NCBI GenBank assembly: GCA_000091205.1
Contig: AP006484.2
Source: Cyanidioschyzon merolae
Taxonomy: Eukaryota
DNA length: 64,000 nt
Reading direction: 5' to 3' (one strand)
Both the position numbers and the translations under genes were made by a program. The notes under the pieces are model-generated. The model saw nothing but the letters and a program-made list of their open reading frames with translations, was not told the DNA's origin and searched no databases. Positions 2,763 to 59,879 of this stretch are shown here, piece after piece. Numbering within the stretch: the stretch's first letter is position 1; every line of letters starts with the position of its first letter.

Positions 2763-2923
2763 TCACAGGGTAGAGGTCGCAGGTGCGCGACGGATGAGCT
2801 CTGAGAATAGAGCACCTCTCAGACAGGAGCCACACACTCTCGATATTTGGAGCCTGCTTTTACTGTTCCACTTCAAACTCCTCGCTATGTCGCCATTCCG
2901 GTTTCAAGGTAAACAGGTTTTAT

Positions 2924-2953
2924 CGCTGTTGCTGTTGCTGCTGCTGCTGCTGC
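2924..2953. repeat. (CTG/CTGTTG)n trinucleotide microsatellite
   Basis: The run gctgttgctgttgctgctgctgctgctgcg reads as poly-Leu in the artefactual ORF 2794-3072. Confidence 0.8.
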
Positions 2954-11619: not shown

Positions 11620-12065
11620 ACGGTCGGTGGCAACGGATGGGCAGTGTCCAGTTTGGGCATCGACGATCTGTCAATATTGTCTAGTTGTGGGGCTATCGCA
11701 CTTGGCAGCGCATGCAGATCGCAGCGCGCGCTCAGCGGCAACACGTTTTCCTGTTCAGTTGCAGGGACGTGTTCGAAGCGCTGGTGGCGTTTTGCAGTTT
11801 AACGGCGAGAATGTTCTGCAGCTATTGTAGAATTCAGTGGAACAGATCTATGTTGCTAACGTTTGCGTACATCATCATGTTTGAGTTTCTTCTTATTGGT
11901 ATTGTCATCGCCGTTTGAGGGATATGTCTGTAACTGTTTTTTTTTTCTGGAATGAGCTGTGATCTCCAGCTTTACAGAAGCAGGTCGTTCGTTTCCCTTC
12001 AGCTCTGCTATGCGCAGTCCACGGGTGCCGATGGTAGCGATAATGTCCCGGCATTGTGGCATGCG

Positions 12066-12830
12066 GTTGTTGTCGACGCATTAGATGCACAGGCGTAAGT
12101 TGCGACCTATGCTCTGCCTGCTATTTTCATCTTATTTGTATGCATCCTCGGTGCCGTCGTCTCAACACTGACACCTGACAGCGGTCAGGTACTCTCAAGC
12201 ACCTATGGATCTGCGCCCTCCGAACGCTGCACTATGGTGCGTGAACGCCTCCTTTATCGCTCGATGCACGCCCTTGACGGGTACAGAAAGCTCTGCATCG
12301 ATGCCGTCCTCGGTTTCCGCGCCCGATGCAGTACCGTATGCTACCAGGCTTGTTCTGCTCGATACGCTCGGAGAGTACTCCGTATGTTGCACGTGCAAGC
12401 GCGCGCTGTTCCATTCCATGGAGGATCTGTGGAAGGCGACAAATCTATGACGAAATAAAGCATCAGAAGAAAAATCGAGGCTGGAGTCTATGTCGAGAAA
12501 TCGCGATCCGTGTACATGCCGCACTCGTAAAGCGATACCGCACTCTCCGCTGGATGCGGTCCGCGCGATGACTCATGCCAAAGTCCAAGAATCGTTTCGA
12601 TGCGAACCGAAAGGACGAGAGCCCGCAGTACCTTATATTATGAGAAGGATCGCGGTACTGTGGAATCCAGTCTTGTCGATGTTCACAAAGATAGGGAAAT
12701 CTGTCTTCGGAATGAAATCTATTATTTGACGCGACAAGTCCTGGGAACTCTCAGCATGAGCTTGTGAACAAGTCTTCGAAAGACAACGCGGTGCACGATC
12801 ACTCGTCAATCCAGCTGTGCGCATTGCTGT
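12066..12830 (-). mobile_element. copy 1 of a ~750-bp non-autonomous repeat derived from a Tc1/mariner-like DDE transposase
   Basis: DNA-level similarity to 19030-19800 and 53420-54130 runs along the whole length. For example gttgtcgacgcattagatgcacaggcg matches gttgatgtcgacgcatttgatgcgcaggca, and gcatgagcttgtgaacaagtcttcgaaagacaacgcgg matches gcatgagcttgtgaacaagtcgtcgaggtacgacaacgcg. Minus-frame remnants carry the first DDE block (FVNIDKTGF, compare Tc1 SDESKF). Confidence 0.55.
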
Positions 12831-13125
12831 GCGCTCCAGTTGCCTTGAACTACAAAGATCTTAATCTTGAAGAATCTCTGATTTGGGCATGATACATGTA
12901 CGGAAGGCAGAATAGTCGAGGCCTGCACACATCTATGTCAGTGAAACAAGAACGCTTTACGAGCATGGAGGGAAAATATATATTCACTCACAGAGGCCTT
13001 CGAATCTTCTTCAACCGGCGGCCTGCTTTCTGTTTCAGCTTCTCCTGACTCACTTCGAGCTTCAGAGGCTGCCCCATAAGATTGGATCGCGTAAGCTCAT
13101 CGGGTCTCGTCTCCAGCACCGCATA

Positions 13126-13560
13126 TCATCTGAGCCTGATGGCGGCGTTGAAGTCACAATTCATGAACTCCATGCGTCCGCTGCAGCCGGTTGAACGCCT
13201 CAATGCATGGATTGATAGAACACGTGCCCTCTGCGTCACCATAGTCCCGCCACCTGCTTCTTCTACTGCTTCGTCAGCTGCTCTTCCTCGCATGATCGTC
13301 CGTGAGAAGAGCATGTTTTTGTTTATCTTCCAGAAGCTGGCGGTGATGGACCTCCAGGATTCCCAACTTTCACGTCCGTACCTTTCCCTTAGATATTGTA
13401 CTCTGAAAATAAACGCAGTTTGAATGCGTCTGCTATAAACGGAGAAAAAGCATTTGATGACATGCACTTGACTGTGGAACGCAATGGAGGTGAAAGGCTC
13501 TAAAAACGGTTCGTGAAAAATCGCAATGGCACCAACGGAGCGCTCGATCCTGTGTCCCAA
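13126..13560 (-). pseudogene. C-terminal fragment of a TnpB/Fanzor-like (RuvC-III) nuclease gene
   Basis: The minus-strand translation ends ...RMEFMNCDFNAAIRLR. That is the D-x-D-x-NAA-x-N-I RuvC-III motif seen in the larger copies at 34409-34612, 45051-45719 and 46744-47097. It is only a short fragment. Confidence 0.45.
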
Positions 13561-19029: not shown

Positions 19030-19800
19030 TCCGGTTGATGTCGACGCATTTGATGCGCAGGCAAATATCGCGGTCAACGCATCGCTTGCGATTTCCATCT
19101 TCTTTGTCTACAGCGAACGTGCTCCCTTCCGACCGGTGACATATGGTTGTGGTCAGGTGATCGGATGTTTCCAGGAAACCGCGTCCTCCGAGGGCTGTTC
19201 TGTTGCTCTTCATAGCCTGCATCATCGCTCAGTACAAGCTCTTGACGAGTACAGAAGGCTCTCCCCGATGCCATGCACTGTTTCCGCGCCCGGTGCCATA
19301 CCCTAGAATCACGAGCTTCTTCTCTGAAATGCTGTTTGCGCGTACCCTCATTGCTGGACAAGCAGGCGGAAGCTGTTCCATTAGATACAGGATTTGTGGG
19401 ACGCAATCTTGCTTATGAAGAAAATGTGCTGGAAAGAAGACTCAGGGTGCAGAACAAGTCGAGAAATTTCATATCGTAAACTCTATTTTCATGCAAAGCG
19501 TCAACACATGCTCCTCTGGAAGCGATCGACGCGATAACAGAATTCCGTATCCAAGACTGGTCTGCATGCAAACACAAGTGACGGGAGCCTCTGGGAGCAT
19601 ATCTCTCGGGAAAAATATCTTGCTGCTTTTCAATGCCGTTTCGTGGATGGCCGCAGATAAAGGAGGATTTGTCTGCGAAACGGGATCCATCATTTGACGT
19701 TACAGGTTCAGCAGAATTCCGGCATGAGCTTGTGAACAAGTCGTCGAGGTACGACAACGCGTTTTTCCATCGTCAATCGAGCGGTGCGAAACACTGCGCC
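19030..19800 (-). mobile_element. copy 2 of the ~750-bp Tc1/mariner-derived repeat
   Basis: See 12066-12830. The minus ORF 19413-19757 carries FADKSSFICGHPRNG, a degenerate DE-first-Asp block. Confidence 0.55.
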
Positions 19801-20700
19801 TACGAATTGTCCTGAATCAGTAACATCCATAATTTGAAGTCAGCGTCCTCTTAGGATGCGCTACATAAAGAACGGAGAATAGTTGAGGCTTGCACGCATG
19901 AATGAAATTACGATATCGGGTAGGTTACGATTGTATATGCGATGGCATCGCCAGTTACCCTGAATCCGGTGAGGTAACGAAACCTGCCTGCAAAGCGTCG
20001 AACGTATCACTCCATAAATATGACCTAGAATCCTGTAATGAAACAAGCATCCAGAAGCTTTCTTTGTTAGTTTCCGAATTTCCGAGCCGTCCAGTTACTA
20101 AATATTTGGAAAGTCTCGATAAGCACGAGTGGAGCGGACAGTTCAGTGTTCCACTTGAATCTGACCCACATGCAGCAACAATGTCGGATGCCGAACGCAC
20201 ACAAAATCGCATGGAGTGTTGCCCCCATGAAGCAGCGCCTTCCAGCATCGCCACGAACTGCAACCTAGAAATACTAGCGCTTTGGCGATGCCTGCGTTTG
20301 GCCAGCCCTGTCACGAGTTGTCAAGTGCTGGACCTGATGCTTTCGACGTCCAGGTCGCCGCCTCGGAGCCGTGTGTGTCGAGCTTGGAGTGCCCGTGAGA
20401 GTCTCGACATTGCAGTGCGAGTCGCACAGTATTTGCCGACGCCCTATACGACTTAACTGTCCGAGCCACAATATCTCAGATGGACTGCAGCGGCTCGGGC
20501 AGGCGTCTCTGTTCTCCATGCATAGGTGAAGAAAGGCGGCATCGGCAGCGTCCGCAACGCTGACGAGGCATGGCGTCGGCGACATTTCCCACTCTCTGCC
20601 TGCTTATGCAATGACTGAAGTCTTTCACCTGTTCATGAACTCGTGCGACCCTGAGCCGATATCAGTTTTTATTCGATATTCTGATCAGGCTTGAACGTAA

Positions 20701-23454: not shown

Positions 23455-24198
23455 TTCCGCTCGTTTGCACGCTCAGGAGCACTAGCCCGAGCCTAAACCG
23501 ATGCTAGAATTGCGCACAATCTGGAAGCAAGCCGCGGATTGCGTGCTGCGGGCGTGCAGGGCGCATGTGGCTGCGCGTGCGCGTTGAAGCGCCTGAATTC
23601 CCCGTACTGCTCTCGTGTAGGCCTGGTGCAAAGGTCGTTAGAGGAGTCCCGGGGCACGTGCCTGGTGACCGGAAAGTGAACCCTTTCTCTGCCGCATTTT
23701 CAGCGAGAAGGGTTATAATTAGAGCGGTGAATTCTCGAGTGCAAGTAGTAGCACACCCTTTTCGTACATGTTTGTATATCTCCCATGTATTCAACAAAAG
23801 GAACACAGCATATAGATTGGAGAAAGGCCGTCTAGAGCTTCATTGAAATCACTGATAGCTTTCAAAGAAAGAGCGTTCCTCATCCAACCTGGCTATTCTA
23901 GGAGCGGCTGGGGATGAGCTGTCCTTCAAGTAGTTTCTATCCTGAAGTCCGTTCAATCAACATGGAACTTATCAACCGCTTTGTACGCGACTGTTCACTC
24001 GAGAATCCGATCCATTTCATGCCTTCTCGGAGAAATGCGTCCGAGGACACCACAGTATATGAAGTTTTCATGTCATGAATGTAAACGTTGACGATGAGAC
24101 TCGGATGCACAAAGGCACTCTTCCAGGCGAAAGCGGCGCGCGTTGAATAACGCACGATCGATTCCGTACTGAAATGCGAACGTTGGTGACAGCATGGA

Positions 24199-24501
24199 GT
24201 GATGGTCATCGCGCTTGATGAGACTTCATTCGGCCGAGACGGTAGGCCTGTATACTACTTTTCAAAATGGCGCAGATTGCTCTTCCCAAGGAGTTTACAG
24301 GCGAGCATGCCGACAACATCAGCTCCGGCTGCGGTGTCATCGCGTGGTCCGCCAGTAATCGACACACAGACAGGACCTTTCAACAGCTCATCCCTCATCG
24401 AAGCGAGTTTCATGGCTTCTCTCTCCGGAATTCTTCTCTCCTGGTGCCAGACAACGCCGCTTTCCAGCAACGCAAATGCTGTGGAGGAGTACCCAATGTA
24501 G
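24199..24501 (+). pseudogene. fragment of a Tc1/mariner-like DDE transposase
   Basis: ALDETSFGRDGRPVYYFSKWRR matches the Tc1 first-Asp block SDESKF..GSDGNSWVRR. It also matches the relics at 28169-28642 and 58970-59569. Confidence 0.45.
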
Positions 24502-27268
24502 ACTGGCGTTGAGCTGCTCCTTGTAACAGCCTATTCTCTCTGGTTGAAATGATCCCGCGTCTTTTCTGATGCCATATGCCATTTTGATGCCCAAGCATCA
24601 AAATACAAGCAGCTAGTGACCAGGACAAGATTTATCGATATAACGTTGTCTACCTTTACGAGAACGAAACTGGGTCGTTCCTCCTCTGCTTGTGCTCCGG
24701 TGCAAACGGGAAGACGCGCTACAGTCAGTAGACATGCTCGCAACGAAAGTGACGAAAAGGCACTGGAGGGTGAGTAAATTCATATGTGCACTGGAAAAAG
24801 AGAGCTCCTTTACCGCCGTCCATCCATTCCGTCTAAATCCCGAGATGCAAACCAGATAAAGAACATCGTGAACACATCCATGCACTCCGCCAAGCAACAG
24901 GGAAAAAGAACCCATCACGTAGCGAAAAGAAAGATCTTCCAGAATAGAGCACGAAAAGAAAAGGAAGGAGAAATTAACGAAGTGGGAAGATCAGCCTGTA
25001 ACCATTGTCGAATCCTCACACTGAAACACATCAACGGTCAGAATCATCCAAAGAGTAACATACAGGACGCTTTCATAGAAAATGCAGCTTCATGTTCGAG
25101 CATATTTCGTCTCGCTGTTTCCGCTTTGACGTACCATGTCAAGAAACTGTTTGTGCGTGTTCCATGCAACGGGCTGGCAACTGTCCACCTCAGCCTGGAA
25201 TCGTTGGATCTACCCGTCGCGTGATACCGCGAATGCTACTCGGGACAGAGGACACATGGCGGTATGACCGTTCGATCAGAGGTTTGGAAGCAAGCTCCCT
25301 TGGACCTCGATGATGCGTCGCTGCGCCACCTGGTCCATCAAAACTTTTACAGTGAAGGATTCAAAAAAACTGTCAAACCAAGCTCAAAAGCCATATCCAG
25401 GATGATGTCGAACGCTTCTCGAGGCGCAGCCTTTGGGCTTTGTATAAATTGTACCCTCTCGTTACTGTTCCAGAAAAGTAGGGACAGATAGAAAGGATTC
25501 TTTGGCATGTCGACGGAGGCAAATGACGAGTTGGTTGCTGTTGAACTTGAGTTCGTGGAGAGGACGGGCGAATGCCGCTACAGGCGCGAGAGTCGCTCAA
25601 GTCATGCTAGCTCATCGCATGTCGACCGCCTCCGGACCGATCGATGTCTTTACTAAAAGACAGTTGGAGCATAAGCGCTGCCTTGCGTGCCTCTGGCGCA
25701 ACGACGTTTTCCTGAACACAGCGCTCCAGAGCAAAACAGATCCCTTCACCGAATCCGAGTGCCCGAGCCTCCTCGAGCGCCTTTCCGTTGTGACTACAAA
25801 TATCCCATCATGGCCAACTATATTACCGTAGGAGCTTCAGTACTGCATGGCCGTTTCCGTGATTTACGTCTAATCTGGGCGGGCAATCAGGAAACTTTCG
25901 AAAGACTTTGTAAAGAGGGCTAGCTGTGTGCGTCCGGGGTTCCTCGTATTCGGGGGAGAAGTGGAGCGCATTACACAGGAACCAGGGAACCCGACGACAC
26001 ATCATTGAGCATGAACTTCGTGAAACTTGCGCATGAATCAACAGATGAGGTTCATTTTCAGCAGTTCAAAGTACATGAAAAGAAAGAATTTTCTATGACC
26101 ATGGATCCCAGGTTGTCGAGCACCATGGCCGACGCCGTCCCTCTGAACCAAGAGGTGAGACGCGAAGACCCGAATGGGAACCAGGTGAAGCTGCTCAACT
26201 TTCCCAGGGCTTGGCATTATCGGGAATTGGGTATGGTGGACGCCCGGAAGCATGCCAACAACCGGAATGGCGTCGCGGTCCATCTGGACGCTGTGCGCGT
26301 CATATCGAGCTGAGCGCGGTGCTCTGTACGCTTCATTTAGGGCATACATGGGCGTCCAAATGGATGCTGCAGACGCTTTTTGGCGGGAGTCCTTGAGACC
26401 GCGCTTGAGGCACCAATTTTTTCGCATGTACGGAGGCGAGAAAGGTGCATCCGCGAACTTGTTCAATGACGTGGAGAAGGAAATGACCAATACGTCGTGA
26501 AGTTTTGTGGTAGTCTAAGGCACTTGACTCTCTGTAGAGCGCAACTGCCGCACTCCTACTCGCTTGGAAAGAGAGTGCGACGCCGACGGGAACCGATTCC
26601 GTACGACTCCCATCGAAGCAATTCGGACGACACACACACACACATCACGAGCACTGGTGCTCGCCGGAGCACATTGAAAAGAATAGGATGAAAAGGGTTG
26701 AAGACACGAAATGCTTTGCGGTAAGCTAAGCGAACGTCAGACGACAACGCAGTTCAAGATGAGAGGCTTCGTATGGTGCGATTTCACAAACAACAATGCG
26801 CCCAAGCATATCTGGTCAGATAACTGAACGTTTTTGTCAGAATACAGAAATTTGGCGGGCTTCCGGAGCGTCAAGCAGTTTCGAGTTGGGCGAAGTTTCC
26901 AGAGAATCGCTCAGTAACCAGTGTGAACATTTTGCTGACAAGTTGTAGATTTGCAATGACCCGTAACAATGGCGTGGCGAATGGACAGTGGGTTTTCGCC
27001 AAGAGCTGGGTACTGGGATTGCGTGGGTCAGCCATCCAGCAAATCTGGAGCACCGCGCATGTCCATCGGGATAGATTTAATCTTGTCATCTGGTAGAAGG
27101 TAATCGAGATCCGTGATTCGATGTTACTGAGTATGCATTGCTCCACGGTCACTCTGTGGCACACCGGAAAGGAGCTTGCCGGCGTCGACGAACTCTCAGA
27201 GGAAATGCAGTTCCAGTTGTCTTTCGACGAAATTTCATAATACATATGGCATTGTCTCGGCGATGGAG

Positions 27269-27674
27269 TCATTGAAACAAACACGTTCTACGAAAATGAA
27301 AGGCAAATAAACATACCCACTTATCGGCGTCTCTCCGGCTTATTTTTGACCAGCTGACTGCTATCGGCTTCAGTTTCTCCATGCACGCTGCGAGCACCAG
27401 AGCCTGTCCCACAAGGTTTGCTCGCATCAGGTCCCTAGGTCTCGTCTTGAGCAGCCCAGATCGTCTGATGTTGATGTCGGCGTTGGAGTCTGGGTTCACG
27501 CACTCCATGCGTTTCCTTGCGCTGGTTGAGCACAGCAATGGAAGGATTCATCGGACTCGCACCCCCTGCGCGAATACACTCTCATCATCGCCTCGTCGGG
27601 CAAACACCTTTACTCACCTGGCATCCCGCTTCTTAGTTTGTTTTGTCACTTGCTCTTCTTCGCTCGATCGTTGA
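27269..27674 (-). pseudogene. C-terminal fragment of a TnpB/Fanzor-like nuclease (RuvC-III block)
   Basis: The minus ORF 27269-27538 reads MECVNPDSNADINIRRSGLLKTRPRDLMRANLVGQ. Compare copy D, EYVNRDFNAAINIRRCAVIERRPPELARENFVGQP. It lies directly downstream of, and on the same strand as, the transposase relic at 28098-28700. Confidence 0.5.
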
Positions 27675-28097
27675 TGAGAAAACTATTCTTCGTTTTTTCC
27701 GGCAGCCGGCGATAGCGGCCCTACGGGATCCTCGGCTTCTATGTGCATACACTTCCTTGGAATTTCTATTTCTTCAAATGAATGCAGTTCATTATGCCCT
27801 TAGATAAGGAACTTCCCGGAGGCAGAGGAACTTGTGGAAGAACGACGAAGTGTACCCTGGTGTCACCATGCTGAAACCTGCAGCGATTCGCCCAGTGCAG
27901 CGATCACCACGTTTTTCAATTGGAAACACTCCTTCGATGGGGTAGAGCAACGGGAAGTACCAAGAAGTGAAAACCTGCTCGTCCCCGATAGATTCGACGA
28001 AAGTTCGAATGCAAGGAGAATGGTGAAATGCCACCTTTTCGAATAGAAGAACGTCGCCAAACGTTAGGGAAAATCCTTCAACGATTCGGAAAAGAGG

Positions 28098-28700
28098 GTG
28101 CTACTGTATGCACCTTCTCTACGAGCGAAACTGAGGTCGCCAAATGAATCCACTGCAGCTAGAAGAGATCACGATATCCTCGTTCTCTTCGAGCTCGACC
28201 GTACACACAACGGGCTCCACATCCGCAGGTATCCATATATGCTCCGTTCGGTTCCTCCGAAGGAAGTCGCATCGACTGGAAAACCAAACCGACGTTCCTC
28301 TGCTTCATACCGATCGCTGACTTCAAGGAACGCTGTCGTTGCGATTTCTCTTGAAGATGGCCAAGCTTGAACTACGACTTTTTTGCGAATGTATCCCAGT
28401 GTTTTCAGGACAACACGGACAAGATGTTGAGAAAGAGAGAAGCCCGTGGCGTCTATCATCGTCACTTTTGCTTTCAGTAAAAAAATCAATGGGTCGTTTT
28501 CTAGCATCGACTGCAAGCAGTCTTTGAGAATATCGGTTCTCGACGCAGAGCGCTTCCACTTTCTATCGGTGTTCCTTAACCATCTGAGAAAGGTGGTATA
28601 ATTGACCTGAATGAGGAAGGCAGTCCTCCCTGCACTGTTCAATAAAGAATATATATCATGCAGTCATTTCGACTCCGATACATGCGGTACAGTGCATAGT
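28098..28700 (-). pseudogene. Tc1/mariner-like DDE transposase relic
   Basis: The minus ORF 28169-28642 has an HTH-like N-terminus (GRTAFLIQVNYTTFLRWLRNTDRKWKR) and a DDE block (FGFPVDATSFGGTERSIYGYLRMWSP). It is homologous to 58617-59569 (WRTAFLVQLSCTAILRWSRNSYRTKNLRP and FVFPVDDTSHGRDGERVKGYSRRWSP). Confidence 0.55.
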
Positions 28701-28949
28701 GGCTTCGATGGTCTGCTATACATTACGAAAAAGCATTCGATTACTCGCAGCGGCCGAGTCACAGTACTGAGTTGAGAGACTAATCCAGCAGGTATGCGGT
28801 GGAGGCTGCAGGCAAGTTGCTCGATTCACATCTATTTTCGCAAACCGTGACCAAAACAACGCCGGGAGCGCCAGCGTATGACCCAGCTAGCTTTACAAAA
28901 GTATCCGGCTGCACTCTGTTGGTGAACGCTATTCAGGAAACGTTTAACC

Positions 28950-30610: not shown

Positions 30611-31546
30611 TCATGACGTACCCAAATCATGGATACGGATGGGGTCAAAATAAGGGCGTTGCTGTGCAAGAGCAGCGCCTAAGTTTTGCCACCATTCCGG
30701 GAGAAGCGTCCGAGCGATCATACGGAACCATGGAGTCAAAGTGTCCGCCTGGTGCTGTAACAATTTGTAGATATCTTCCCGTGTGCATGCTTTCACTGCG
30801 GCGACCTCGTTGGCATTCGGCTCTACGCGCAATCCAGTGCCCGTACTGCCGTCCAGCACGACTTTCTTGCGTGCAAAGAGGATATAGTCGACTTCGTGCT
30901 CGCCCCAAGCGGTATTTGTACGACAAACAGCCCTATATCGGATGCGTGTCAAGTATGAAAGGTCGTCAGGATGGAGACCGGTCAGGCCAAGTTCTTGTTG
31001 AAGCTTTCTCAACGCAGCACGTTTCACGCCAAGCACCGGGTCCGAGACGTTGCACTCGTCCGGGTTGAAGAGAGGGTGCGAGCAGCAGGTGTTCGCCCAC
31101 AGCAGAGGAAACGTGACCTTTGTTGCCGCTCGCTGCTGCAGAATCAAGCGGTTGTCTTCGTCGAAGAGAAAAACCGAGAAAGCTCTGTGCAAAGGTAGGT
31201 TATTCGAGACGAGATGGGCGTCCGCTTTGGAACAGCGTCCGATGACCCGGTCTTCAGCGTCTGTGAGGATGAGCTCTTCCGCAAGCAGAGCCCGTTGTAC
31301 TTCATCTATTCCAGATATCTGAGCTTCCATTCCCAAATAGGATCCTGTGGAGCTCTTTGGATCGAAAAAAGTGCCCCAGAGTCTGCGGAACACCAGACCC
31401 CGACGATACATATGCACATTGCGCGCTAGAAGGTGCGAATGGATTTGCTCCAGCGCTCGACTTGGCAGCGATGGACAGCGATCCATGGCGGGCGTCAGCG
31501 CTGGCGTGCATATTTTTTTCGATGACAAAATGTTTCCATGGACCAT
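30611..31546 (-). CDS. IDI1: isopentenyl-diphosphate delta-isomerase, type I (Nudix fold)
   Basis: [41 protein letters not shown] and [15 protein letters not shown] plus [19 protein letters not shown] are collinear with human IDI1 ([74 protein letters not shown]). The core is preceded by an N-terminal extension of roughly 70 aa. Confidence 0.92.
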   Translation of the reverse strand: [311 protein letters not shown]

Positions 31547-32722
31547 GGATTCCAGATTGTGGGATGGATGGATGGATCTTGGCTATCGGCAAAGCGTCTT
31601 CCATAATGCAGCCTATCTCCAAATTCCATTATTTATGCTTCCTATAGGGTCTGCTGGTCGTTTTGTATATTCTATCGTGTGGCAAGTGCCTGCCTTGCTG
31701 CACCCGCAATAGCGCTAATACCGCTGGTGCAGATGCGTCACGGGGACAGATCGGCTTTGCCATACGACTGAGAGCGTCGCCCCGAGGCATGGAGCACCCA
31801 ACTCGAGTTCGGCTTTCGTTATCATTCTGGGCGCCTGCAAGCTCCGCAGCTAGACCTACTGCCTGCGACAGCGCGAAGCGATGTATTAGGAGTCCATCAG
31901 GATCGGCGCGATACCCAGATGCAGACTACCTGCTCCTAGTCCCGGAGTATCCTGCGTTGCGGAAGAGTCGCTCAGATCTCGCTAATGCACCTACCATTAG
32001 ATAGAGCCTGAAGCACTAGCCTGGCGGACTCGTTCGGCTCGCGGGACCTCTCGCCAGGAAGGTAAACTTTCGAAGATACGGAAACCTTTTCCCGTTTTTA
32101 AGGTTTACCATAAAGAAAGAAAAAAATTGTTATCTCGTTGCTGGTTATTGATTAGTCTCTGCACTTTGCTCTATGTAGCGTGGTCGATACGCGCACCTCC
32201 ATATCTGGCAGGCATGAGAAACAACGCGCTTTTCGCCTTTGATTGTGCATACGATCCTGACAGTTCGCCGGCTTGGTGACCTGACGGGCAAGTTGTATTT
32301 GCGTTGAAATAGTAGCAAATCATGTGTTTCATATTAATTGTTTTTCAACACTCAAGTGAGTGTATTCCAGTGATATTTCGCACGTCATAGAAGACGCGTT
32401 CAACGGGCGTTCTTTTTCAAGCAAAAAGGAAAATTATGGACATGGAATTCGGGCATCCGGGGGAGCGGGGGGCGGTGTCGCCTGCTGCGGAAAATACATA
32501 TGGAAAACAGTGCCGAGCAGTGCGGAACAGGAAAAGGCAGAGAAGCAGAAGAAGGGGGCCAGACGCCAAAGGCTGCAAGAAAGACGACGGAGCGACGAGA
32601 TAGTAGTGAAGGCCTCTCTTCATAGACATATCAAGGATCTGCTCAAGAAAAAAATGCAAGAGACCATCAGGAACCGCATCGAATCTTAATCCGTGAGTAT
32701 TATTAAGACTTTTTAAGGACTG

Positions 32723-34612
32723 ATGCATTTGGTGAAGGAGGTGTATCGCGACGTGACGAACAGCACAACAGCCGAGGTTCCCGAAGAATTTTCGAACAAG
32801 ACCATCATCTGCCACCTGTTGCTTGGCGCCGGGGAAAAGTCGAGGAGAAGCGAGCGATTACATGCCCTCCACGACAAATACACCAAGTACCGCTCCAGCG
32901 GTAATCTATACAGGGGAGACTTGCGTATTTATGAATACGGAGCGATGAAGTACCTCACGAATCTGAAGCACCATATGATCGTGAACCTCGAATGTTTCAT
33001 GACAAGCGACGTGTTTGCACAATGCCCGGGCCTCTCTCCTGAGGAAAGAGATGGGCCATCATCGACAGCATCACAAACGATTGTCGCGATGAACAGGAGA
33101 TTGAATTTGTCGACGGGCAGACATCACGCAGGAGAAAGAATGAAGCTTCTGTAATGCATTCGGTTGTACAAGAGAACCGTGCGGTTCTGGGGCTGGCGAA
33201 TCCAGCGGAAAATGTATTAGATGTAAAAAAGATAAAAATAGATTTTATCCCCTCATCTTGCGCTATTTCGCGTTTTTGGACCTAGAACCCGAACACAAAG
33301 CGGAGATGGAGCTGGTGGTGAGAAAAAATGAAGAGTCGCAGAAACGGAGGGCTTTCCTACTGAAGAAGCGCTTCGATGTTGTTGCGATATTCAAGATCAA
33401 GTGGCTCTTTGTGACAATCGACTCCAGCATCCTTCATGCCGTCATGAAGGAGACCAGTCGAGAGTTCGACGTGAGCAAATAGGAAATCACGGGTGAAAAC
33501 CGGGAGACTCATTGGAAGAAATTTTTCGATTTCAAACGTCTCAACAGGAGCAAGAAAAAGGTACTCTCGGGGATGATCGAAAGCGATGGGGTATCGATAT
33601 CTGTACACTATAGGCGCTTGAGGGCGGATCGTCCTGTTCCATCTTTGTTGTCGTCCTCGGCGAAGCATGAATATAAGAAGGATATAGATCCTGCGACGCA
33701 CGAGGTGCATGAGAACGACTGTGTCGTCGGAATCGACTGAGGGAACACGAATATTATCACCATCGCTGCATCTAGTTGTGGGGAAAATGATATCAACGAC
33801 AACTTACGGCGGAAAGGCGTGCAACTTTTAAATTACTAGAGAGCGAGATACTACCGGGAATCTGGGATAATCAATGCGAGGAAAAAAGTGAGACATGGAA
33901 TGCATGAGTGAAAGAGCACCTAGAAGCGATCAGCAAGGTGACGAGCAGCGGAGCGGACTCGCAAGCTTTTTGGGGATTCGTGAAAGTTCGCGCTGCTCAT
34001 TGGGAGGTGCTATGGAAAGAATATACAAAGCCCCGGTTGGCTTATCCACAGATGAAGCTGCACTGTGGGAAGCAGCGTGCATTCGACAACTTCTTCGATG
34101 AATTGAGCGCCCTCAAAGAGGAAAAGAGTCAGAGGTTCATAGTAGCTTATCGAGCAGGACGCTGGGTATTCGGAAAAGGGTTTTCACCCGCTCCACCCGC
34201 ATGAATGTACAAGGAGTGCGCATACCGTATTGCCACGACACCAATGGAAGAATTCCGAACGTCATACACACACCACGAGTCGGGGTGTGCATTCCAGCGG
34301 GTCGAGATGGAAAAGTGTCAGAGGAGCCCTGCATCCATAGAAAAGTACGGAGCGCTGACGGAAGAGCAAATGGAATAGAGGGCACGATTTAGAGGACTTG
34401 ATGCTTGCGTGAGTACAACCAACGAAAAGAATCAAATGGAGTTTGTGAACCAAGACTTTAATGCCGCTATCAATATAAGGAGATGCGCAGTGCCGGAGAA
34501 CAGACCTGCAGAGCTGATGAGAGAAAATCTTTGTGGGGTAGCCTCTGGGGGTAGAGTTGCACAAGGAGAAGTTGAAACCAGTAGTAGGGGGCTGTCAAAA
34601 AAAGACCGGTAG
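32723..34612 (+). pseudogene. TnpB/Fanzor-like (OMEGA-type RuvC + zinc-finger nuclease) gene, copy A, broken by frameshifts and an in-frame stop; the 5' boundary is uncertain and may reach ~32360
   Basis: The ORF fragments 33258-33482, 33895-34204, 34201-34392 and 34409-34612 are collinear with copies C and D. The RuvC-I-like block DCVVGID*GNTNIITIAA (~33720-33770) has a TGA inside GIDxG. The central block is MKEHLEAISKVTSSGADSQAFW...GKQRAFDNFFDELSALKEEKSQRFIVAY. The RuvC-III block is NQDFNAAINIRRCAVPENRPAELMRENLCG. A basic NLS-like segment KQKKGARRQRLQERRR lies upstream (32360-32689). Confidence 0.55.
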
Positions 34613-35556
34613 GCGTCTGCACATCAGTCGGTAGAAATATATAGTCTATGGCAGTCCGTATGCCACTCGCCACCACATTGCACCGGTTATGCAGCGTATG
34701 CCAATTGAAAGCCATTCGCTTCATATATGTATGCATCGGCACGTATGTATCAAATTGCTATTATTACGTGAAACTTCTGTTGAAGCTGATACGGATTTGC
34801 CAGCGACGAGTGCGCACTGTACGCAGTCTTCATGGGAACTCTGCGTCAATGCTTTGAGCTTCAGAGACATGCAATGCGCTAAGCGTCAGGGGTCTCGCAA
34901 GTACACGATCGAGGAGGTATCCGAGTGTCCACGCTGCATCGCAAGAACGCGATGCGCGACAATGCGGTTCATCTTGCGCTGAAGCACACATAAAAAATGT
35001 TTTCGGAACCAGAACGCGCAAAAGCGCGATCGGTGACCGACCGAAGGTCGTTTCTTACGCATCGAGTAGAGACCAAGACGCTGGATCATAAATTGGACCG
35101 TGGAGGAAAACGCCTCAGTCGAAGATTGACCTACTTCGAATGTCGCACCCGAAATCTGTTCTCCGAGCAGGGGAGCGATGCCTACTCAAAGAGTCTATGG
35201 CGCAGAGCAACGCTGTTTCAACCGAAACAGCGCTGCAGGCAGCGTTGTTGAAAACTGAGGCCGGCAAGGGCGAAGCATTCGAAGAGACACGCATCGCTGT
35301 GCAGCTCAGTGAATCTTTACAGTGACGGGAATCGGAAACTCAGGTTTGCCTGCACGTGCCTCGTTCGGCGACTTGCACTTTGTTCACCGGGAAATGCCCA
35401 TCCAGGCGTGCGCGTCGACCACAGAAAAAGGCGCTTTCCAGACGGCTGCAAAGTCCATGCAGACTCTGTGGGCTTGAACTGCGCGCAACTTCGGGGCTGT
35501 GTAATCTCGGGAGAGTCGGCGATGAAGCGCTCATCAATCGCGCGGTCCAATCGCCG

Positions 35557-44100: not shown

Positions 44101-45069
44101 CCTGAGAAACAGCACCAGGCTTGTCGGTACGTCCGCCTCCAACAGAAGCTCGACTGGAAAACCTTCCAACAGCTTCAACAGAAGCTGAAGCGATGCCCTA
44201 AATGCCGGTCCGGGGTCCGTGAATTCGCAGCGTAACATATGGAGCGCCACAAGAACGATACGGCTGCCTTCCTGCACAAGACGCTCACCGATCGCATCAG
44301 CAGTCAGCTGAACAGTTGCCGCGCCTGCTGACTGACGTATTCCCGTCTCTTCAGCCACTGCGGATAAGATTTCTTCAATTATCGTAGAGAAAATCTCCAT
44401 AGATTCAGCGCTTTCCAGAGGACTTCCGAGCAAATGATCCAGTACCCGAGAACCATAGCTGCTCTCCCAATACTGCACCACAATTCGAGCGAGAAACTGG
44501 GCGACCTTTCTCCGCTCTCCACAAGAAAATGCTCTCTTTCCAGCTGCTAGTGTGCCATGGCAGTGATTCCATAACTCAACTGCAAAAGCGCAGAGCGTCT
44601 GACACATATCCAGGGTGTCCGTACGCGCGCTTAGAGCCTCAGCCTGCGAACGCTCGATAAGGTCGACCAACAGCTGAAACCCATACTGTACAGCGGCCGT
44701 TTCCACTACTCTAGCAAAGTTCGAGTCTGCATCTGGAACAGCAGATCGTGTCAAACTTTCATAGCATAGATTAGCTGCTATGAGGTCCCGTCCCAGCGCG
44801 AAAATCGTGTCTGCGGAGAAAAACTTTGACACATTACAGAGGAACGTATGGGCTTGTCTGCGGCTCTCTCCGGTGCTTTTTCCCCAGTGCAGCACTGCCA
44901 GAGCTGAAACAACTTCCGCCGTAAGATCAGACGCCATTTCCGTTGCAAATCCAGAAATAGTCCCCTTGGCGCTCAGAAGCCACGCAGCCACCACCGCTGT
45001 TCTAAAGTGGAACGACGTCGCGCGCGTACAGTAGTTGCGAGAAGCCCGCCCTAGACCGGACGTCTCCAA
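41110..45069 (-). CDS. large HEAT/ARM-repeat protein, karyopherin-beta (importin/exportin)-like; the start is probably at the internal Met near 44937
   Basis: The ORF is 1319 aa and helical-repeat throughout. An importin-beta N-terminal-like segment (DLTAEVVSALAVLHWGKSTGESRRQAHTFLCNVSKFFSADTIFALGRDLI) resembles the exportin IBN_N pattern. The first ~44 codons of the ORF track entry read through the 3' end of the Fanzor-like copy C, so translation more plausibly starts at MASDLTAEVV. Confidence 0.6.
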   Translation of the reverse strand: METSGLGRASRNYCTRATSFHFRTAVVAAWLLSAKGTISGFATEMASDLTAEVVSALAVLHWGKSTGESRRQAHTFLCNVSKFFSADTIFALGRDLIAANLCYESLTRSAVPDADSNFARVVETAAVQYGFQLLVDLIERSQAEALSARTDTLDMCQTLCAFAVELWNHCHGTLAAGKRAFSCGERRKVAQFLARIVVQYWESSYGSRVLDHLLGSPLESAESMEIFSTIIEEILSAVAEETGIRQSAGAATVQLTADAIGERLVQEGSRIVLVALHMLRCEFTDPGPAFRASLQLLLKLLEGFPVELLLEADVPTSLVLFLRRRFEQMFGDRLVACADYDWLAIEALGCWITRAQPMLPKQRDVLGSLLETLISFVICFDEAYTGDVGLLIDAPIRWEERLSLLQAVIELTFLAFESTLTHLQERPAIWSSFILLLGRLVSHPWASIAELALAFCCRDQVLKTVLTAQCVVVLLDAAWMRCCMDTSLPAYLFTGKDIVENSVLDANDPRWRLMSFVLSRNAEQPKLNSSLRSRTRDFLRKICQNWRDACLDWVVTRAVDRMDCHRNRRSTGPVMEQFCFREEPAHLHSFWRGLLSVRNGQYPSDAESALFIEMLLDETREVMFFTMSEVLAPLLPSLGRGSGVSKPPGVSKTSSRGASSEVGGEENARLTQVLQLGERVEFVLSMVDTLDLDQDANKIHMILHVFFGCAPLLARIEGAQIRTIQAALRVLERIQQLPCTEHARWSAMGLHRREKWFDALCRGILALLLRSEGSETVSGAQVLLPSIQQALREAPMPFPARCSLLKCVPVIVCSLDSPEKSIPVLNALLEETLGIWKTMALQHEVLRDPERFLIAFLAPSADADTNRTCLLQLLTLFEQMLSVSMKHSIWKQTVMFGELLPTTLPQMVAALNHLFSLRPDGRGDISVLAPSRIEIAQWYRLVMEWMLRAGLLPEAIADSRQHRKELLKTRRSFIHISARGLLLFQRMLALDPDPDALKFYREICLRGIPQVDIEYLALIVRHVMKTLLQCEAQAHQGSDIWETDVTEIWLPLLRATAERIGQLAYEEVSDEESSTMDEVLHGAPHANEASSANEAFDQAAVALVELAVAMLKLESCSRRVQLFNWARDFLRKCLDWHFESASRKAFAFLRKHLSFWIHPAEGYLAIDTESLLQLENSIARALTDERWYSRPEDVRKVHAAVNDELYRRGFSPACFTTSELPSKHPNASMFPGENGGERMRALGNVAVRRSFNHGASTQLNEAAMAFPSSKMASQKHRPLSVRLLQSWKKRTQLYTMDLEDESINGDDDTALEGVAVLFG

Positions 45070-46072
45070 CTGATGTGCAGACGCCTCCCAGTGCTTTTGA
45101 AGCGGCCACCCACTACTGCTTCCAACTGTTTCTCATATAGTTCAACTTTTAGAGGTTGTCCAACAAAGTTCTCTTGTGTAAGCTCTGGAGGTCTTCTCTC
45201 CAGCACCGCACAATTCCTTATATTGGTTGCGGCGTTAAAATCTCGATCCACGAGCTCCATCCGTTTCTTGCCATCACTCCCTGTACTTACCAATGCAAGT
45301 AGCCCATGAACTTTCGCTCTCCTTTCCATTTGCCCCTCCGTCAGCGGTCCATACTTTTCTACATCCTCAGGGCTCCTCTGGCACTTTTCTATCTCCACCC
45401 TCAGGAGTGTACAGCCCAGCTCGTGGTGTGTGTAGGACGTTCGAAACTCATCTACAGGTATCGCAACAAAACGTCTTGCGCACTCATTGCACGTTCTTGT
45501 TGACGGAACTGATGTACACCCTGTTTGGGTCTTCCATTGCCCTACTCCGTACGCTACTACGAGTCTCTGACTTTCATCCTCCTTAAGGGCACTCAACTGA
45601 TTGAAAAAGTTGGCAAATGCCCGCTGCTTCCCACAGTACAGAATCATACGCAGACGAATCCATCGATTCCTTGTATACTCCTCCCACAGCGCATCACAAT
45701 GCGCAATGTGAACTTCCATAAACTCCCGAAAAAAGCTTTAAAGTCCGCTCCTCGGCTCGTCACCTCGCTCATAGCTTCCAGGTGCTCTTTCACTCCTGCA
45801 TTCCACATCTCAATTTTCTTCCTCGCATTCATGATTTCCGATTCTCGATAGTATCTTGCTCTCGAGAATCTCAACAGGCGCATGTCTTTCTGACGTAAGT
45901 TGCAGTTCGTACCATCTTCCGCGCGCGTGGGTACTGCGATGGTTATGATATATGTGTTCCCGGGCTCTGCACCAACGACAAAGTCGTTATCTGGCACCTC
46001 CTGCGTCGCGGGACCCGCCTCCTTCTCATGTTCATGACTCGCCGCACCAACGACGAAATCGTTCTTCTGCAC
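45051..46072 (-). pseudogene. TnpB/Fanzor-like nuclease gene, copy C (N-terminally truncated; the C-terminal 222 aa are still one ORF)
   Basis: The minus ORF 45051-45719 has a zinc-finger/RuvC-III tail (TCNECARRFVAIPVDEFRTSYTHHELGCTL...MELVDRDFNAATNIRNCAVLERRPPELTQENFVGQP). The upstream ORF 45644-46072 has a duplicated RuvC-I-like block (DFVVGAEPGNTYIITIAV) in which the Asp of GIDxG reads Glu. Confidence 0.6.
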
Positions 46073-46167
46073 TTTCTGCGTCGTAGGATCCGCCTCCTTC
46101 TCATCTACACGCTTCGTCGCGGGCGAAGCCGAATGCAGACCAGAAGGCGAGCCCTACCGCGCAGGAG

Positions 46168-47097
46168 GTGCAGAAGAACGATTTCGTCGTTGATGCGAAC
46201 CCCGGGAACACGAATATCATACCCATCGCAGCACCCAAGTATAGGGAAGATGCTAACACCGGCAACTTACGTCAGAAAGACATGCGTTTGGTGAAGCCCT
46301 CAAGGGCTAGATATTACCGAGAATCGGGAATCATGAATGCATGGAAGAAAATTGAGACGTGAAACGCAGGAATGAAAGAGCACCTAGAAGCTATGAGCGA
46401 GAAGACGCGCCGAGGAGCGGACTTTCGGGCTTTTCTGAAATTCATGGAAGTTTGTGTTGCTCATTGGAAGGCGCTGTGGGAAGAATATACAAAGCCCCGG
46501 TGGGCCCGTCTGCGTATGAACTCGTACAGTGGGAAGCAGCATGCATTCGCGAACTTTTTCAATCAGTTTAGCGCTCTCAAGGAGAATGAAAGTCAGAGGC
46601 TCGTAGTAGCATACGAAGCATAGAGCTCGGCGTCGAAAAAAGGGTGTAGGCGATCTCCAACGACAAGAACGTACAAAGAGTGCGCATGCCGTTTCGTCAC
46701 GATACCGATAGATGAGTTCCGAGCGTCGTATACAAACCACAAATTGGGGTGCACGCTTCAGAGGGTCGAGATGGCAAAGTGCCAGCGGAGCCCTGAGGAT
46801 ATGAAAAAGTACAGAGGGCCGACGGAAGAGCAAATGGAAAGGAGGGCGAGACTTCGAGGATGGCTTGCACTAGTGAGTTCAACTACCAATGGCGAGAAAC
46901 GCATGGAGTATGTGAACCGAGATTTTAATGCCGCTATCAATATAAGGAGATGTGCGGTGATAGAAAGAAGACCACCAGAGTTGGCACGAGAGAATTTCGT
47001 GGGGCAACCTTTCAAAGTGGGACTATATGAGAAACAGTTTGAACCAGTTGTGAGTGAGCGGTACAAAAAGACTGGGAGGCGTCTGCTCATCAATTAG
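46168..47097 (+). pseudogene. TnpB/Fanzor-like nuclease gene, copy D (head-to-head with copy C; frameshifted)
   Basis: 46168-46362 has RuvC-I-like FVVDANPGNTNIIPIAA, where the Asp position reads Asn. 46372-46623 has MKEHLEAMSEKTRRGADFRAF...GKQHAFANFFNQFSALKENESQRLVVAYEA. 46744-47097 has FVTIPIDEFRASYTNHKLGCTLQRVEMAKCQRSPED...MEYVNRDFNAAINIRRCAVIERRPPELARENFVGQP. Confidence 0.6.
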
Positions 47098-47144
47098 ATA
47101 TAGCTTGTTCCGGTCGGGTTTCCCGCCGCTACTGTGTACTGCCG

Positions 47145-50100
47145 GTGACGTTCGACTTTCGAACAGCGTTCGTTGTCGTGGGTGGTTTTCGTGAGTGCAA
47201 AATGGCTTTTTGCGATTTGAGTGTCTTCACGACGGAACTGTCGTGCGCTACAGGTAATGCACGTCTTCGCAGTCGCCAGGCAACCCTGTTCACCTTGAAG
47301 GGTCGCGTTCACAGGACTGCGTCGGATCTTCGCAGGACTCACAAAATCAGTCGTTTGGTGAGCATGAACGTTAGCGAAACACTCACAAGCACCAAAGCTG
47401 TTCAAAATTTGGAGCCATTAGGCACCAAAGAGAGCGTCCTGGATGCTGCAGTCTCGGCGAAAAAAGTCCAAGCTCCGGGCACCGCAGCACTTTACTTTGC
47501 TTACGGCAGCAATATGTGCCCCCGAGTACTGGGACCCGACACTGATCTTCTCTATTTGTTGCGACGAATATCGTCGTCGTCCTGGGAAACCGGAGAGCCG
47601 GCCGTACTGGAAGGGTTCAGCCTTGAGTTCAGCTGCCCTGGCGTGGAAGCCCTCGGAGAACCAGCATTCGCCAACATTGTGCCTGCCGTCGAGGCCAATT
47701 CTGGTGCACCCCGTGAGCAGTATGATACAGAGGTTCACGGTGTTTTGTTTCGATTGACACAAGCAGAATTAGACCGCATCCTATTATCGGAAGGGGTCGG
47801 GTTAGGGCGCCAGCGCGTCGTCAACGTCACAGTACGCACCTACCGCAACGTACTCTATGAAAATGTCAAGACAGTCGCGTATGTATCATGGGAGATACGG
47901 AATCCACAAAAGCCCTCGTCACGTTACCTCGAGCTCATCCTGGAAGGCGCTAATTACTTTCACTTGGATATTCGGTATGTTCGAACGCTTCTGCGCAAGG
48001 CCTCCGGTGAGTACACCTCTGCCGCGCTCCCAGCCACGAATAATATTCAGAGCGACATGGTGAAAATGCTTCAGGACATACAGGTTCCCCAACAGATTGT
48101 GGCGTTTTATCAAGAAATGCACCACCTCAAGGGAACGGTTCGATTCATCATGCCTCCGATGCTTGACGAGAGCTCACGGGCGACTAGGCCGCTGTTGCTG
48201 TTCTTCCCCGGCCTAGATGGCACTGGCATCAGTATTGCTACACAGCTTAGAATGTTTCAGTCAAAATATGATGTTCGCATTTTGGTGATTCCTCGGGACA
48301 ACCGAATGCCGCTGGATGAATTAGGGAACACAATTCTGGATTGTTTGGAGTGCCTCTGGAAACAAAAGACAGAGGTACTGATGTCGAAAGAGGTATCGCA
48401 CGAGCCTCAGGTTGCACCGGATGTTCTCGCTGAGAGCATGGGCTGCTTATTGTGGTTTGAGTGTGTAAGAGCTTTTCGCAGACGAGCGAATCTCAAATGC
48501 GGCGCTGTTGACCCCTGCGAAAGCCCTACTCGCGCTCTGGCAAGGCACGTCATGCTGGTGAACCCAGCAACTAGTTTCAGCAAATCAGCTCTCGCTCCAG
48601 TTTGGGAAAATATCTCTGCATTACCCGACCCCGTTTACCACGTTGCTCCGTACATATTTAGCCCTATTCTGATCGATCTGCTCCAGCTTTTGGCAGAGCC
48701 CAGTATGGCGTTTCAGTCACTCCAGCGAATGGGTGTCCTCCGCGAAATCTTGCCCAAGGAGACGCTCCGTCATCGGGTGCGACTCATTCGCGACTTTCGC
48801 TATGCAGCCGATGACTTTGCGGCTGCAGCAGAGTACGGTGCTGAGCAATACACAATCGCAGTTGCAGCGAATGATGCTCTGCTGCCCTCTCTAGCAGAAT
48901 CAGAGAGTCTCCTTGGAAAGCTTACGCTGCCTTTTCTCGAAATTCAAAAAACGGGGGTCCGGAGGATGAGTAGCCTTCCTGCTACTGTTGTTCGGTACGT
49001 TGCAACTCAAGGTGGGCACGCGCTGCTCCAGTCGGGGAGCTTCGATGCTTACCAGCAGCTCATGGTTAAGGCTGAACGCGCACATGATCGCATTCGAAGA
49101 GGTCTTTTGGAACGAATACCCAAAGCTGCGAAAGATTCACATACCCGTTCGTCTCCGAGCCAGCATACAACGGACGTCACCGACAAAACAATGGGCTCAG
49201 GTTTCGTAACTGAAACCCTCGACAACGACCAAACACTTGTTGCCAGGTCGCCAACAAATGGACAGCTGGATCGATATGCGATACGGCAGAGGACTGGCTC
49301 GTCCGTGCGGGATTCAACCACGGGCTCACGGTTTTTCCCGAGGAACAAGTTCGCGCTCGGCGAGACGCGGTGGCAGCTTCAACGACAGAGGCGTCTGCTT
49401 TCGCCAATTTTTCTGGATTTCGACAAGGTACCCTTATCATCATCAACGCGTCCGGTTCTGTTTGTTGGAAATCATACCCGTTTGGGGCTCATCGATTTAC
49501 CATTTCTGATTGACCAAGTCTGGAAGAGCCGGGGTGTATTCGTGCGGGGTCTGGCACATCCCATTATATTCGCGATGCAGCAGCGGGGTCAGTCTCAATG
49601 GGAAAGTGCGGGAGATCGGCAGCGCACGCGAGCCCGCGACTTTGCGACGAATCTCGCTGCACTAGGCGCTGTATCTGTATCACCGCGAACGGTTTACAGT
49701 CTCCTTCGGAACGGCGACTCTTTATTGCTTTTCCCAGGCGGCGCCCGTGAAGCATATAAGAGACGTGGCGAAAATAATCAAATTTTTTGGCCGAAGGATG
49801 AAGAGTTTGTGAGACTTTGTGCACGCCTCGATGCTGTTATTGTGCCTTTTGCCTCTTTTGGCCCTGATGACAGCTTCGACGTCGTGGCGGACGGAGAAGA
49901 ACTCTTGAACGTACCTTTTCTGGGCGGCTTTATTCGCAATCAGTTTGAAAGAATGGGTGTTCGCGCTGATATTGTGCGTGCTTGGCGCTCGCCGCTTTCC
50001 GAGCAGCCCTCTGATGCGGCGATCGCAGACCTGTTGATCCCGCTGCTGCGACCGCGGCCGCCACTGCGACTCTACTTCCAGTTTTTCGATCCGGTATATC

Positions 50101-59570: not shown

Positions 59571-59879
59571 GCCAAGGTACATTCCGTCTTTCTTCCGCAA
59601 GTCCTTCTCCCCCGGGAAGGTCCTCACGTAAGAGTAGAAAGAAGTGCGTTCATTGTAAAGAAACAAAAACCCGAGGAAAAGTATTGAGAAGCAAGTCGGG
59701 GATCCCGGAGGCTTGGTGTCGCCGGATTTCCACAAAAAAAAATGTGAAAATCCTCTCCTCGCCGACCATCGAGCGAAGAAGAGCGAGTGACGAAGAGGAA
59801 GAAGAAATGTATTGGGGGATATGCAAGAAAAGATGTTTGTCCAACGGTACGATGACGAGACTGTAATGGCACAGAGGGC

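Follow-up and report, generated by a model that had tools for sequence, protein, structure and literature searches.

Relics of an apparently extinct transposon that joined a Tc1/IS630-type transposase to a Fanzor1 nuclease gene in Cyanidioschyzon merolae

What placed a transposase relic and the end of a Fanzor-like nuclease gene side by side, on the same strand, at two places in one 64,000-nucleotide stretch of the Cyanidioschyzon merolae genome (contig AP006484.2 of assembly GCA_000091205.1; that whole stretch is the window in what follows)? An earlier note, made from the letters alone, took the two places, here locus A and locus B, for copies of one deletion derivative that had transposed as a unit. 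The account that we consider probable as a whole, if not beyond dispute, is that A and B are decayed copies of an extinct C. merolae family of DNA transposons. The ancestor, ~3.3 kb long, would have carried on one strand a Tc1/IS630-type DD34E transposase gene, then the Fanzor1 gene of the CMe-1 family, and a short 3' untranslated region (UTR) with a terminal hairpin. On at least two occasions an internal deletion would have removed the greater part of the Fanzor gene, in the two forms called L-type and S-type below; the resulting 1.42-kb derivatives, transposase plus Fanzor stump, would have been copied to 22 or more dispersed sites, presumably by their own transposase, with shorter transposase-less derivatives (such as copy C) carried along; all copies would then have decayed neutrally.

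In a BLAST comparison of the window with itself, 58658-60092 (+) and 28775-27348 (-) form an alignment of 1451 nt with 67.8% identity (E=6e-130). It passes without a break from the transposase relic across the spacer into the nuclease tail, and it extends outside the two open reading frame (ORF) relics; the architecture and orientation that the earlier note had called the same in both places are in fact colinear, and its suggestion of what would speak for independent insertions, an alignment confined to the ORF relics, is not what is seen. With limits set from a 22-copy alignment of the family (for A, from the alignment with B as well), locus A is a complete L-type composite element at 27269-28782 (-), comprising a leader, the transposase relic, an internally deleted Fanzor gene and a 3' UTR with a hairpin. 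Its transposase, a pseudogene of Tc1/IS630 DD34E type, occupies 27792-28697 (-; frame walk, and tblastn with the family consensus, E=7e-103). Its Fanzor1 (CMe-1) remnant lies at 27321-27748 (-), where alignment with full-length copies and typing of the junction place the start codon and ~23 codons next to the last ~120 codons; positions 896-973 of the published consensus CMe-1A correspond to window 27758-27682, and a Fanzor profile matches at 27410-27538. The 3' UTR and element end (27269-27320, -) hold a decayed version of the terminal hairpin GTGAAAC-N7-GTTTCAC, followed by TGA.

Locus B, at 58651-60167 (+), is a second complete L-type composite. Its transposase pseudogene lies at 58735-59640 (+), with a transposase match at 58773-59636 (E=1e-57) from profile hidden Markov models (HMMs) that were run over the six-frame translation of the window, and its internally deleted Fanzor1 gene lies at 59684-60117 (+), the start codon mutated to TTG; CMe-1A 869-962 and 2831-3083 correspond to window 59642-59740 and 59865-60114. 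The RuvC-III motif of the tail reads DSNADINIRR in A and NFSAAINIRR in B, the RuvC-III Asp being replaced by N in the latter. At both loci the nuclease gene is incomplete, lacking RuvC-I and RuvC-II, and stops and frameshifts run through it and throughout the rest of A and B. Locus A clusters at at least 90% identity with contigs L009, L010 and L012, and locus B, at the same threshold, with L038, L040 and L041; these contigs evidently come from Cyanidioschyzon populations.

The two genes

The transposase relics are nearly full-length: the frame walk through A and B recovers ~295 codons and the whole DDE domain, and so more than the helix-turn-helix (HTH) and first-Asp motifs (TAFL..LRW and VD[AD]TS[FH]G) that had been picked out correctly before. 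The raw frame translations of A and B find no match in Pfam. Once frames are corrected, A alone scores 18.8 bits against Pfam DDE_3, below the cut-off of 28.6, a further copy (L003) scores 32.9 bits, and a three-copy consensus scores 45.0 bits (E=1.3e-11). In the 22-copy consensus the DD34E triad is legible as FVFPVDETCFG, LLLDNVVFHHS and PPYAPWFNPIEGVF, with 34 residues from the second block to NPIE. Residue by residue the consensus can be aligned with P0039, an intact DDE_3 protein, and the transposase of the Pythium ultimum Mariner element PUl-1 matches it (E=5e-14, with 30% identity across the DDE core). Two N-terminal HTH-like motifs (RTAFL.QVS.TA.LRWLRN and VSQQLVRVVLKTLGY) align with the N-terminus of P0039, a likeness at the level of motifs only; the consensus has no significant Pfam HTH match. 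A consensus that passes DDE_3 and keeps DD34E spacing bears out the label of a Tc1/mariner-type enzyme: as judged from its sequence, the A and B transposase is a DDE enzyme of Tc1/IS630 DD34E type.

P0039, the only intact relative of this transposase, is encoded on contig L082 (1-2513; Logan SRR9199082). An ORF of at least 471 aa follows it with a 4-nt overlap and is cut by the contig end at 'RIDSVETDGVGLRLVLK', which resembles a WED motif; the Fanzor profile gives no match on the available N-terminal part of this ORF. The contig starts with TA and then CAGTCCTGCC, a Tc1-like end. It may represent a living transposase-plus-Fanzor element.

By profile and by predicted fold, the tail and the nuclease of its family are Fanzor1, so that the Fanzor-like label given to the tail proves apt. 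A composite conceptual nuclease protein leads to strong full-length matches such as P0001 (752 aa, E=5e-221). An exhaustive profile search collected 1453 representatives, and a 69-member alignment of the family was made. At the level of close relatives, a profile of 19 of them matches nothing among PDB sequences, and Pfam and NCBIfam, searched at E<=10, return only a faint match to PF07282. The 69-member profile finds the solved Fanzor1 structures PpFz1 (9cf0, E=5.3e-22), SpuFz1 (8gkh, 2.2e-13) and GtFz1 (9cer, 9e-6), and PF07282 is matched by 12 of the 69 members. The RuvC residues D484 and E656 (numbered as in P0001) do not vary, and the third of the D/E/D set, D725, hardly does, a statement that applies to the family and not to A and B. 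An AlphaFold2 model of P0001 built from the 69-member alignment (predicted local distance difference test, pLDDT, 82; predicted template modelling score, pTM, 0.80) has Fanzors as all of its best seven Foldseek matches in the PDB (E=2e-16 to 5e-14, TM score up to 0.72); a model from a shallow alignment, with a pLDDT of 32, was left out of the fold search.

Deletion types and the two-gene ancestor

Scanning metagenome contigs with the transposase alignment yielded 73 loci, which reduce to 23 distinct ones. At nearly all of them the transposase is followed, 70-270 bp downstream and on the same strand, by the end of a Fanzor gene and nothing more of it. L003 is a third copy with the junction of A and B, in an unrelated neighbourhood. 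Alignment of A, B and L003 with full-length copies establishes that the Fanzor remnant is the product of an internal deletion. The 22 aligned copies show two junction types. L-type copies (nine loci, A and B included) keep the adjoining part of the leader together with the start codon and ~23 codons, and resume ~120 codons before the stop codon; S-type copies (13 loci) keep only the last ~88 codons. The description of the remnant as no more than the last ~100 codons was accordingly right as to the RuvC-III tail but overlooked the 5' start codon and the ~23 codons that follow it. In the same way, 'present twice' holds for the composites A and B, but the window contains six occurrences of the tail peptide, which in copy C stands without a transposase.

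Within the nine L-type and within the 13 S-type loci the junctions are identical at the nucleotide level. The window is dense in transposable-element relics, with eight Fanzor and four transposase relics in its 64 kb, which could lend some colour to the idea that Tc1-like elements inserted independently beside Fanzor tails, as at a hot spot, and that the pairing is a coincidence. The shared junctions refute that idea, the continuous A/B alignment and the shared outer boundaries speak against it too, and its probability is very small indeed.

Nor is either junction type derivable from the other. CMe-1A 897-971 is present in L-type copies and absent from S-type copies; CMe-1A 2737-2830 is kept in S-type copies, at 79% identity to CMe-1A, and unrecognisable in L-type copies. 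Both must therefore come from a longer ancestor in which the transposase was already in place. In contigs L015, L016 and L017, which have that organization, the 5' terminus of the family is followed by codons 1-195 of the transposase, with 81% identity to the consensus across 647 nt. Next comes a full-length Fanzor gene, and last the 3' UTR characteristic of the family, which can be followed to consensus position 1407 of 1418; transposase-less copies, in contrast, diverge right after the stop codon.

The window itself adds two older, more divergent relics with the same organization. The first, at 24112-26812 (+), has a transposase at 24112-24549 (tblastn E=6.5e-8, HMM) and then a Fanzor gene, relic F, covering profile positions 27-569 of 625. 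The second, at 50959-52924 (-), has a transposase at 52226-52924 and then a Fanzor gene at 50959-51940 (HMM, tblastn); window 51573-51643, in this relic, matches 26239-26168, in the first, in the self-BLAST. This lineage shares only 29% transposase identity with the composite family, yet has the same gene order and strand, and the gene order common to two such deeply divergent lineages suggests an old linkage. The fragment at 24112-24549 had been assigned before to the DDE family of A and B; a real transposase relic it is, but one of a far more divergent lineage with a Fanzor relic of its own. Together with L015, these sequences show that the ancestor held the transposase and a full Fanzor gene in one element. 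The earlier proposal to look for a full-length element has thus been rewarded in part: L015, with transposase codons 1-195, and the two older relics pair a transposase with a full Fanzor gene. The same three run counter to the possibility, raised at the outset, that the two genes belong to different elements.

Relic F (+) and the Fanzor tail of locus A (-) converge within ~450 bp (window 26104-27689). The same convergence is found in L009, L010 and L012, which marks it as an old, shared insertion configuration.

Dispersal, element ends and rival accounts

Column conservation among the 22 copies is ~0.8 within a 1418-bp unit, whereas in the flanks it is ~0.46-0.48, and the change is abrupt at both ends. 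The consensus starts with TAGTCTTTCAACTCA and ends with GTGAAACGTTTTTTGTTTCACTGA, and the neighbouring host genes differ between loci. Sharp shared ends in the midst of unrelated flanks and neighbours are the signature of a discrete element inserted many times, and not of segmental duplication. Duplication or gene conversion of a single locus could shelter behind the age of the copies, at which target-site duplications (TSDs) would be unreadable in any case; 22 loci with different host genes, and flank similarity that stays at background right up to the sharp ends, make it most improbable. That a composite with a shared deletion was mobile as a unit, which was the heart of the earlier proposal, is thus supported by 22 distinct loci, nine of them with the deletion type of A and B. 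On contig L063 (2074-6707) a composite and a separate Fanzor copy of full length stand on the same strand, the latter 1.3 kb downstream of the former, so that family members are clustered locally there as they are in the window.

What moved the unit is a less straightforward matter. Terminal inverted repeats (TIRs) and TA duplications are the defining hallmarks of Tc1/mariner transposition, and a search of the flanks for both, as proposed at the outset, found neither. Inverted-repeat searches around A and B returned chance-level pairs only. The 22-copy consensus ends contain no TIR: their best inverted similarity, judged by eye, is ~15/25 nt and consists mostly of the heptamer GTTTCAC, which is also part of the 3' hairpin. 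The termini are alike in direct orientation. The 5' flank has a conserved TTATA, where 8 of 21 copies have TA at -4/-3 and 7 of 21 have it at -2/-1 (background 3%); the 3' flank has TA in 1 of 21 copies, and no TA duplication was found. A perfect 7-bp hairpin stands at the consensus 3' end, just before the terminal TGA, with additional stems upstream. Helitron-like ends (5' TC, 3' CTGA plus hairpin) were considered and rejected: there is no Rep/helicase, and the 5' flank does not fit.

These ends bear directly on the most serious competitor of a two-gene transposon driven by its own DDE enzyme, namely that a non-autonomous CMe-1-type Fanzor element once took a Tc1-like transposase ORF into its 5' leader, the enzyme being a passenger rather than the driver and the composite spreading by whatever moves the TIR-less CMe-1A elements. 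A number of observations sit more easily with such a capture and weigh against the preferred account. The missing TIRs and TA duplications head the list. Next, the stretch before the transposase, at the far 5' end of the composite, shares homology with the leader of the Fanzor element itself (CMe-1A ~788), so that both outer ends of the composite are those of a Fanzor element; the transposase ORF, placed between CMe-1A ~860 and 869, fills this leader segment almost exactly, and a direct repeat of ~6-8 nt flanks it. Elements with the L-type Fanzor deletion and no transposase also exist, namely copy C, a ~560-bp element resembling a miniature inverted-repeat transposable element at 12938-13497 (-; CMe-1A 793-971 and 2897-3083), and L003solo, in which the deletion is exactly that of the L-type; on the two-gene account they require a precise second loss of the transposase, or recombination. 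CMe-1A, with neither TIRs nor TSDs nor a transposase gene, nevertheless reached ~150 copies (PMC3627910). Two further points count against the preferred account itself: all copies are dead, so that activity cannot be inferred directly, and the 7-bp hairpin of the consensus is the sole structural evidence toward a guide RNA, covariation at the 3' end being uninformative because the copies have decayed neutrally.

Against capture stand the gene order common to two lineages that are only 29% identical in their transposases, and the kinship of the transposase with that of PUl-1, where both genes sit between mariner TIRs (PMC3627910). Capture also still needs an element with a transposase and a full Fanzor gene, as L015 and the independence of the S- and L-types require; the reading of the composites as deletion derivatives accordingly holds on either account. 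The absent TIRs and TSDs, and an ORF-sized segment bounded by repeats, keep capture in contention, as an unlikely but live competitor. On the preferred, two-gene account the DD34E enzyme itself would have moved the family.

The state of the copies is that of a dead family. The transposase ORF is broken at all 23 distinct loci, with a longest open stretch of 275 codons, itself frameshifted. Conservation at the three codon positions is 0.82/0.82/0.81 in the transposase and 0.75/0.75/0.75 in the tail, a test that detects no selection in either. A comparison of five deleted copies gives star-like distances, and their phylogeny carries no signal on gain versus loss of the transposase. Equal decay of all codon positions and star-like distances indicate neutral decay after an old burst, and a stump that is not a conserved mini-protein. 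Domestication of the stump or of the transposase as a functional gene, for which it can be said that the three-copy consensus stump stays in frame from its start codon across the deletion, is consequently the least probable of all the alternatives: every copy has stops and frameshifts, the codon positions decay equally, and the stump lacks the WED, REC, RuvC-I and RuvC-II regions.

CMe-1A and other Fanzor elements

Five host ORFs of the window are identical to proteins of C. merolae 10D, on a 457-kb chromosome. From this genome Bao & Jurka (2013, Mob DNA 4:12; PMC3627910) reported a single Fanzor1 family, CMe-1A. As published, it is 3169 bp long, with ~150 copies each ~80% identical to the consensus and some ORFs intact; it has no TIRs, its TSDs were not determinable, its classification was left as unknown, no transposase was described, and its 5' 635 bp are common to TE-N2_CMe (PMC3627910). 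The CMe-1A consensus matches the copies in the window, so that their Fanzor-like gene belongs to this already published family, and the intact Fanzor genes found in L001 and at other loci, which have no transposase, agree with the intact copies of the original description (PMC3627910). Around the intact genes in L001 and L002 no transposase relic was detected within 10 kb. An intact copy in L001 (8688-9675) has ~1 kb of extra leader sequence, which contains, on the opposite strand, a 255-aa ORF with a Cys/His pattern like that of a retroelement-protein C-terminus.

Several other pieces of the family are scattered over the window. Copy E, at 31520-34631 (+), is a full-length, stop-riddled and transposase-less CMe-1A element (79.4% identical to the consensus over 3126 nt; boundaries by comparison with L001 and L002), and no transposase signal was detected in its CMe-1A leader. 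Its left end (31520-31546) overlaps the first codons of a long NUDIX ORF resembling isopentenyl diphosphate isomerase (30611-31546, -), and the true start of this host gene is probably a downstream Met. D1 and D2 are two 5'-truncated copies placed head-to-head as a 2.2-kb palindrome (44995-47168, in both orientations), each with a full RuvC domain and each spanning ~2110-3135 of the consensus, with identities of 86.8% (D1) and 83.6% (D2). They are better preserved than copy E, and the palindrome lies between divergent host ORFs, one exportin-like and the other AIG2/DAGAT-like. A solo fragment of 126 bp at 3090-3215 (-) corresponds to CMe-1A 4-128, in the part shared with TE-N2_CMe, at 75% identity.

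Repeats of ~750 bp, which the earlier note had placed in the same DDE family as the transposase relics, turn out to be an unrelated dispersed repeat. They are non-coding, lie at 12064-12821, 19032-19839 and 60368-60665, are 65-70% identical to each other, occur in 28 of the loci that were fetched, and resemble neither the transposase nor the composite nor CMe-1A to a significant degree. Two of the three copies in the window lie within 100-200 bp of the point where a deleted Fanzor element (C and B) has its 3' end, in opposite relative orientations.

The composites and CMe-1A thus reside in the same genome, encode the same Fanzor1 protein family and are alike in having no recognisable TIRs or TSDs. 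They share the consensus segments ~788-860, 869-896 (to 971 in L-type copies) and, from ~2737 or 2831, the stretch up to 3084; A, B and C match the consensus in leader and tail segments only. Unlike the composites, CMe-1A has 787 extra nucleotides at its 5' end, TE-N2_CMe included, and a different 3' UTR; unlike CMe-1A, the composites have a DD34E transposase gene in their leader and little of the Fanzor gene left. The transposase-less CMe-1A may well have arisen from the same kind of element by losing the transposase and gaining the foreign 5' part (TE-N2_CMe). The fuller proposition, that CMe-1A goes back to a DD34E Tc1/mariner-type transposon with the nuclease as its second gene, and that the transposase died out while Fanzor elements with intact ORFs and IS200/605-like asymmetric ends (TTATA in the 5' flank, a 3' hairpin, no TIR or TSD) persisted and reached ~150 copies, is tentative, and we would rate it as improbable rather than probable. 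Were it true, a eukaryotic Fanzor element would have outlived its DDE transposase and might have become mechanistically independent of it. The family in any case poses the puzzle of why some Fanzor copies remained intact although the transposase once linked to them had died out.

That Fanzor1 occurs in Mariner/Tc1 elements (PMC3627910, PMC10530073), and that C. merolae has a Fanzor family, has been known, the latter since 2013. What is new is a plausible parent for a family of 'classification unknown', namely an element with a DD34E transposase gene in the CMe-1A leader, supported further by the reconstructed 1.42-kb family of deletion derivatives, by a copy that serves as a 'missing link' and by older relics in which the gene order is the same. 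A literature search, from which Repbase was left out, found no paper that ties CMe-1A or C. merolae to a Tc1/mariner transposase.

The nearest known counterparts are PUl-1 and PUl-2 of Pythium ultimum and PGv-1, Mariner elements with both a transposase and a Fanzor1 gene (PMC3627910). As in these, the transposase precedes Fanzor1 on one strand, the size suggested for the ancestor is similar (~3.3-3.8 kb), and the transposase is homologous to that of PUl-1. PUl-1 itself has 24-bp TIRs and TA duplications (PMC3627910 supplement); the C. merolae family, unlike PUl-1, has neither, is dead in all its copies and has mostly lost its Fanzor gene to deletion.

In the anatomy of its deletions the family recalls the non-autonomous TnpB derivatives of IS200/IS605 and IS607 elements, which retain the transposon ends and the guide-RNA region. 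In both, internal deletions leave the nuclease gene its 3' end and the element its right end, and the termini are asymmetric, with a conserved 5'-flank motif and a right terminal hairpin, and without TIRs or TSDs. The likeness is anatomical only, the enzyme here being a eukaryotic DDE transposase and not a Y1 or serine TnpA. Taken together, the C. merolae copies constitute a natural deletion series (elements with both genes; two independent kinds of Fanzor deletion; loss of the transposase; loss of both) from which the parts needed in cis may be read. The last ~90-120 Fanzor codons and the hairpin end are retained in every derivative (L-type, S-type, C and L015), and by analogy they may survive through cis-acting roles, as the right end of the element and as a guide-RNA scaffold. 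In the characterised TnpB and Fanzor systems the guide-RNA sequence starts at the ORF 3' end, continues as far as the element's right end and reads into the flank, and conservation extends back into the coding region (PMC10530073); the part of the C. merolae element spared by every deletion corresponds in position to this guide-RNA-coding region.

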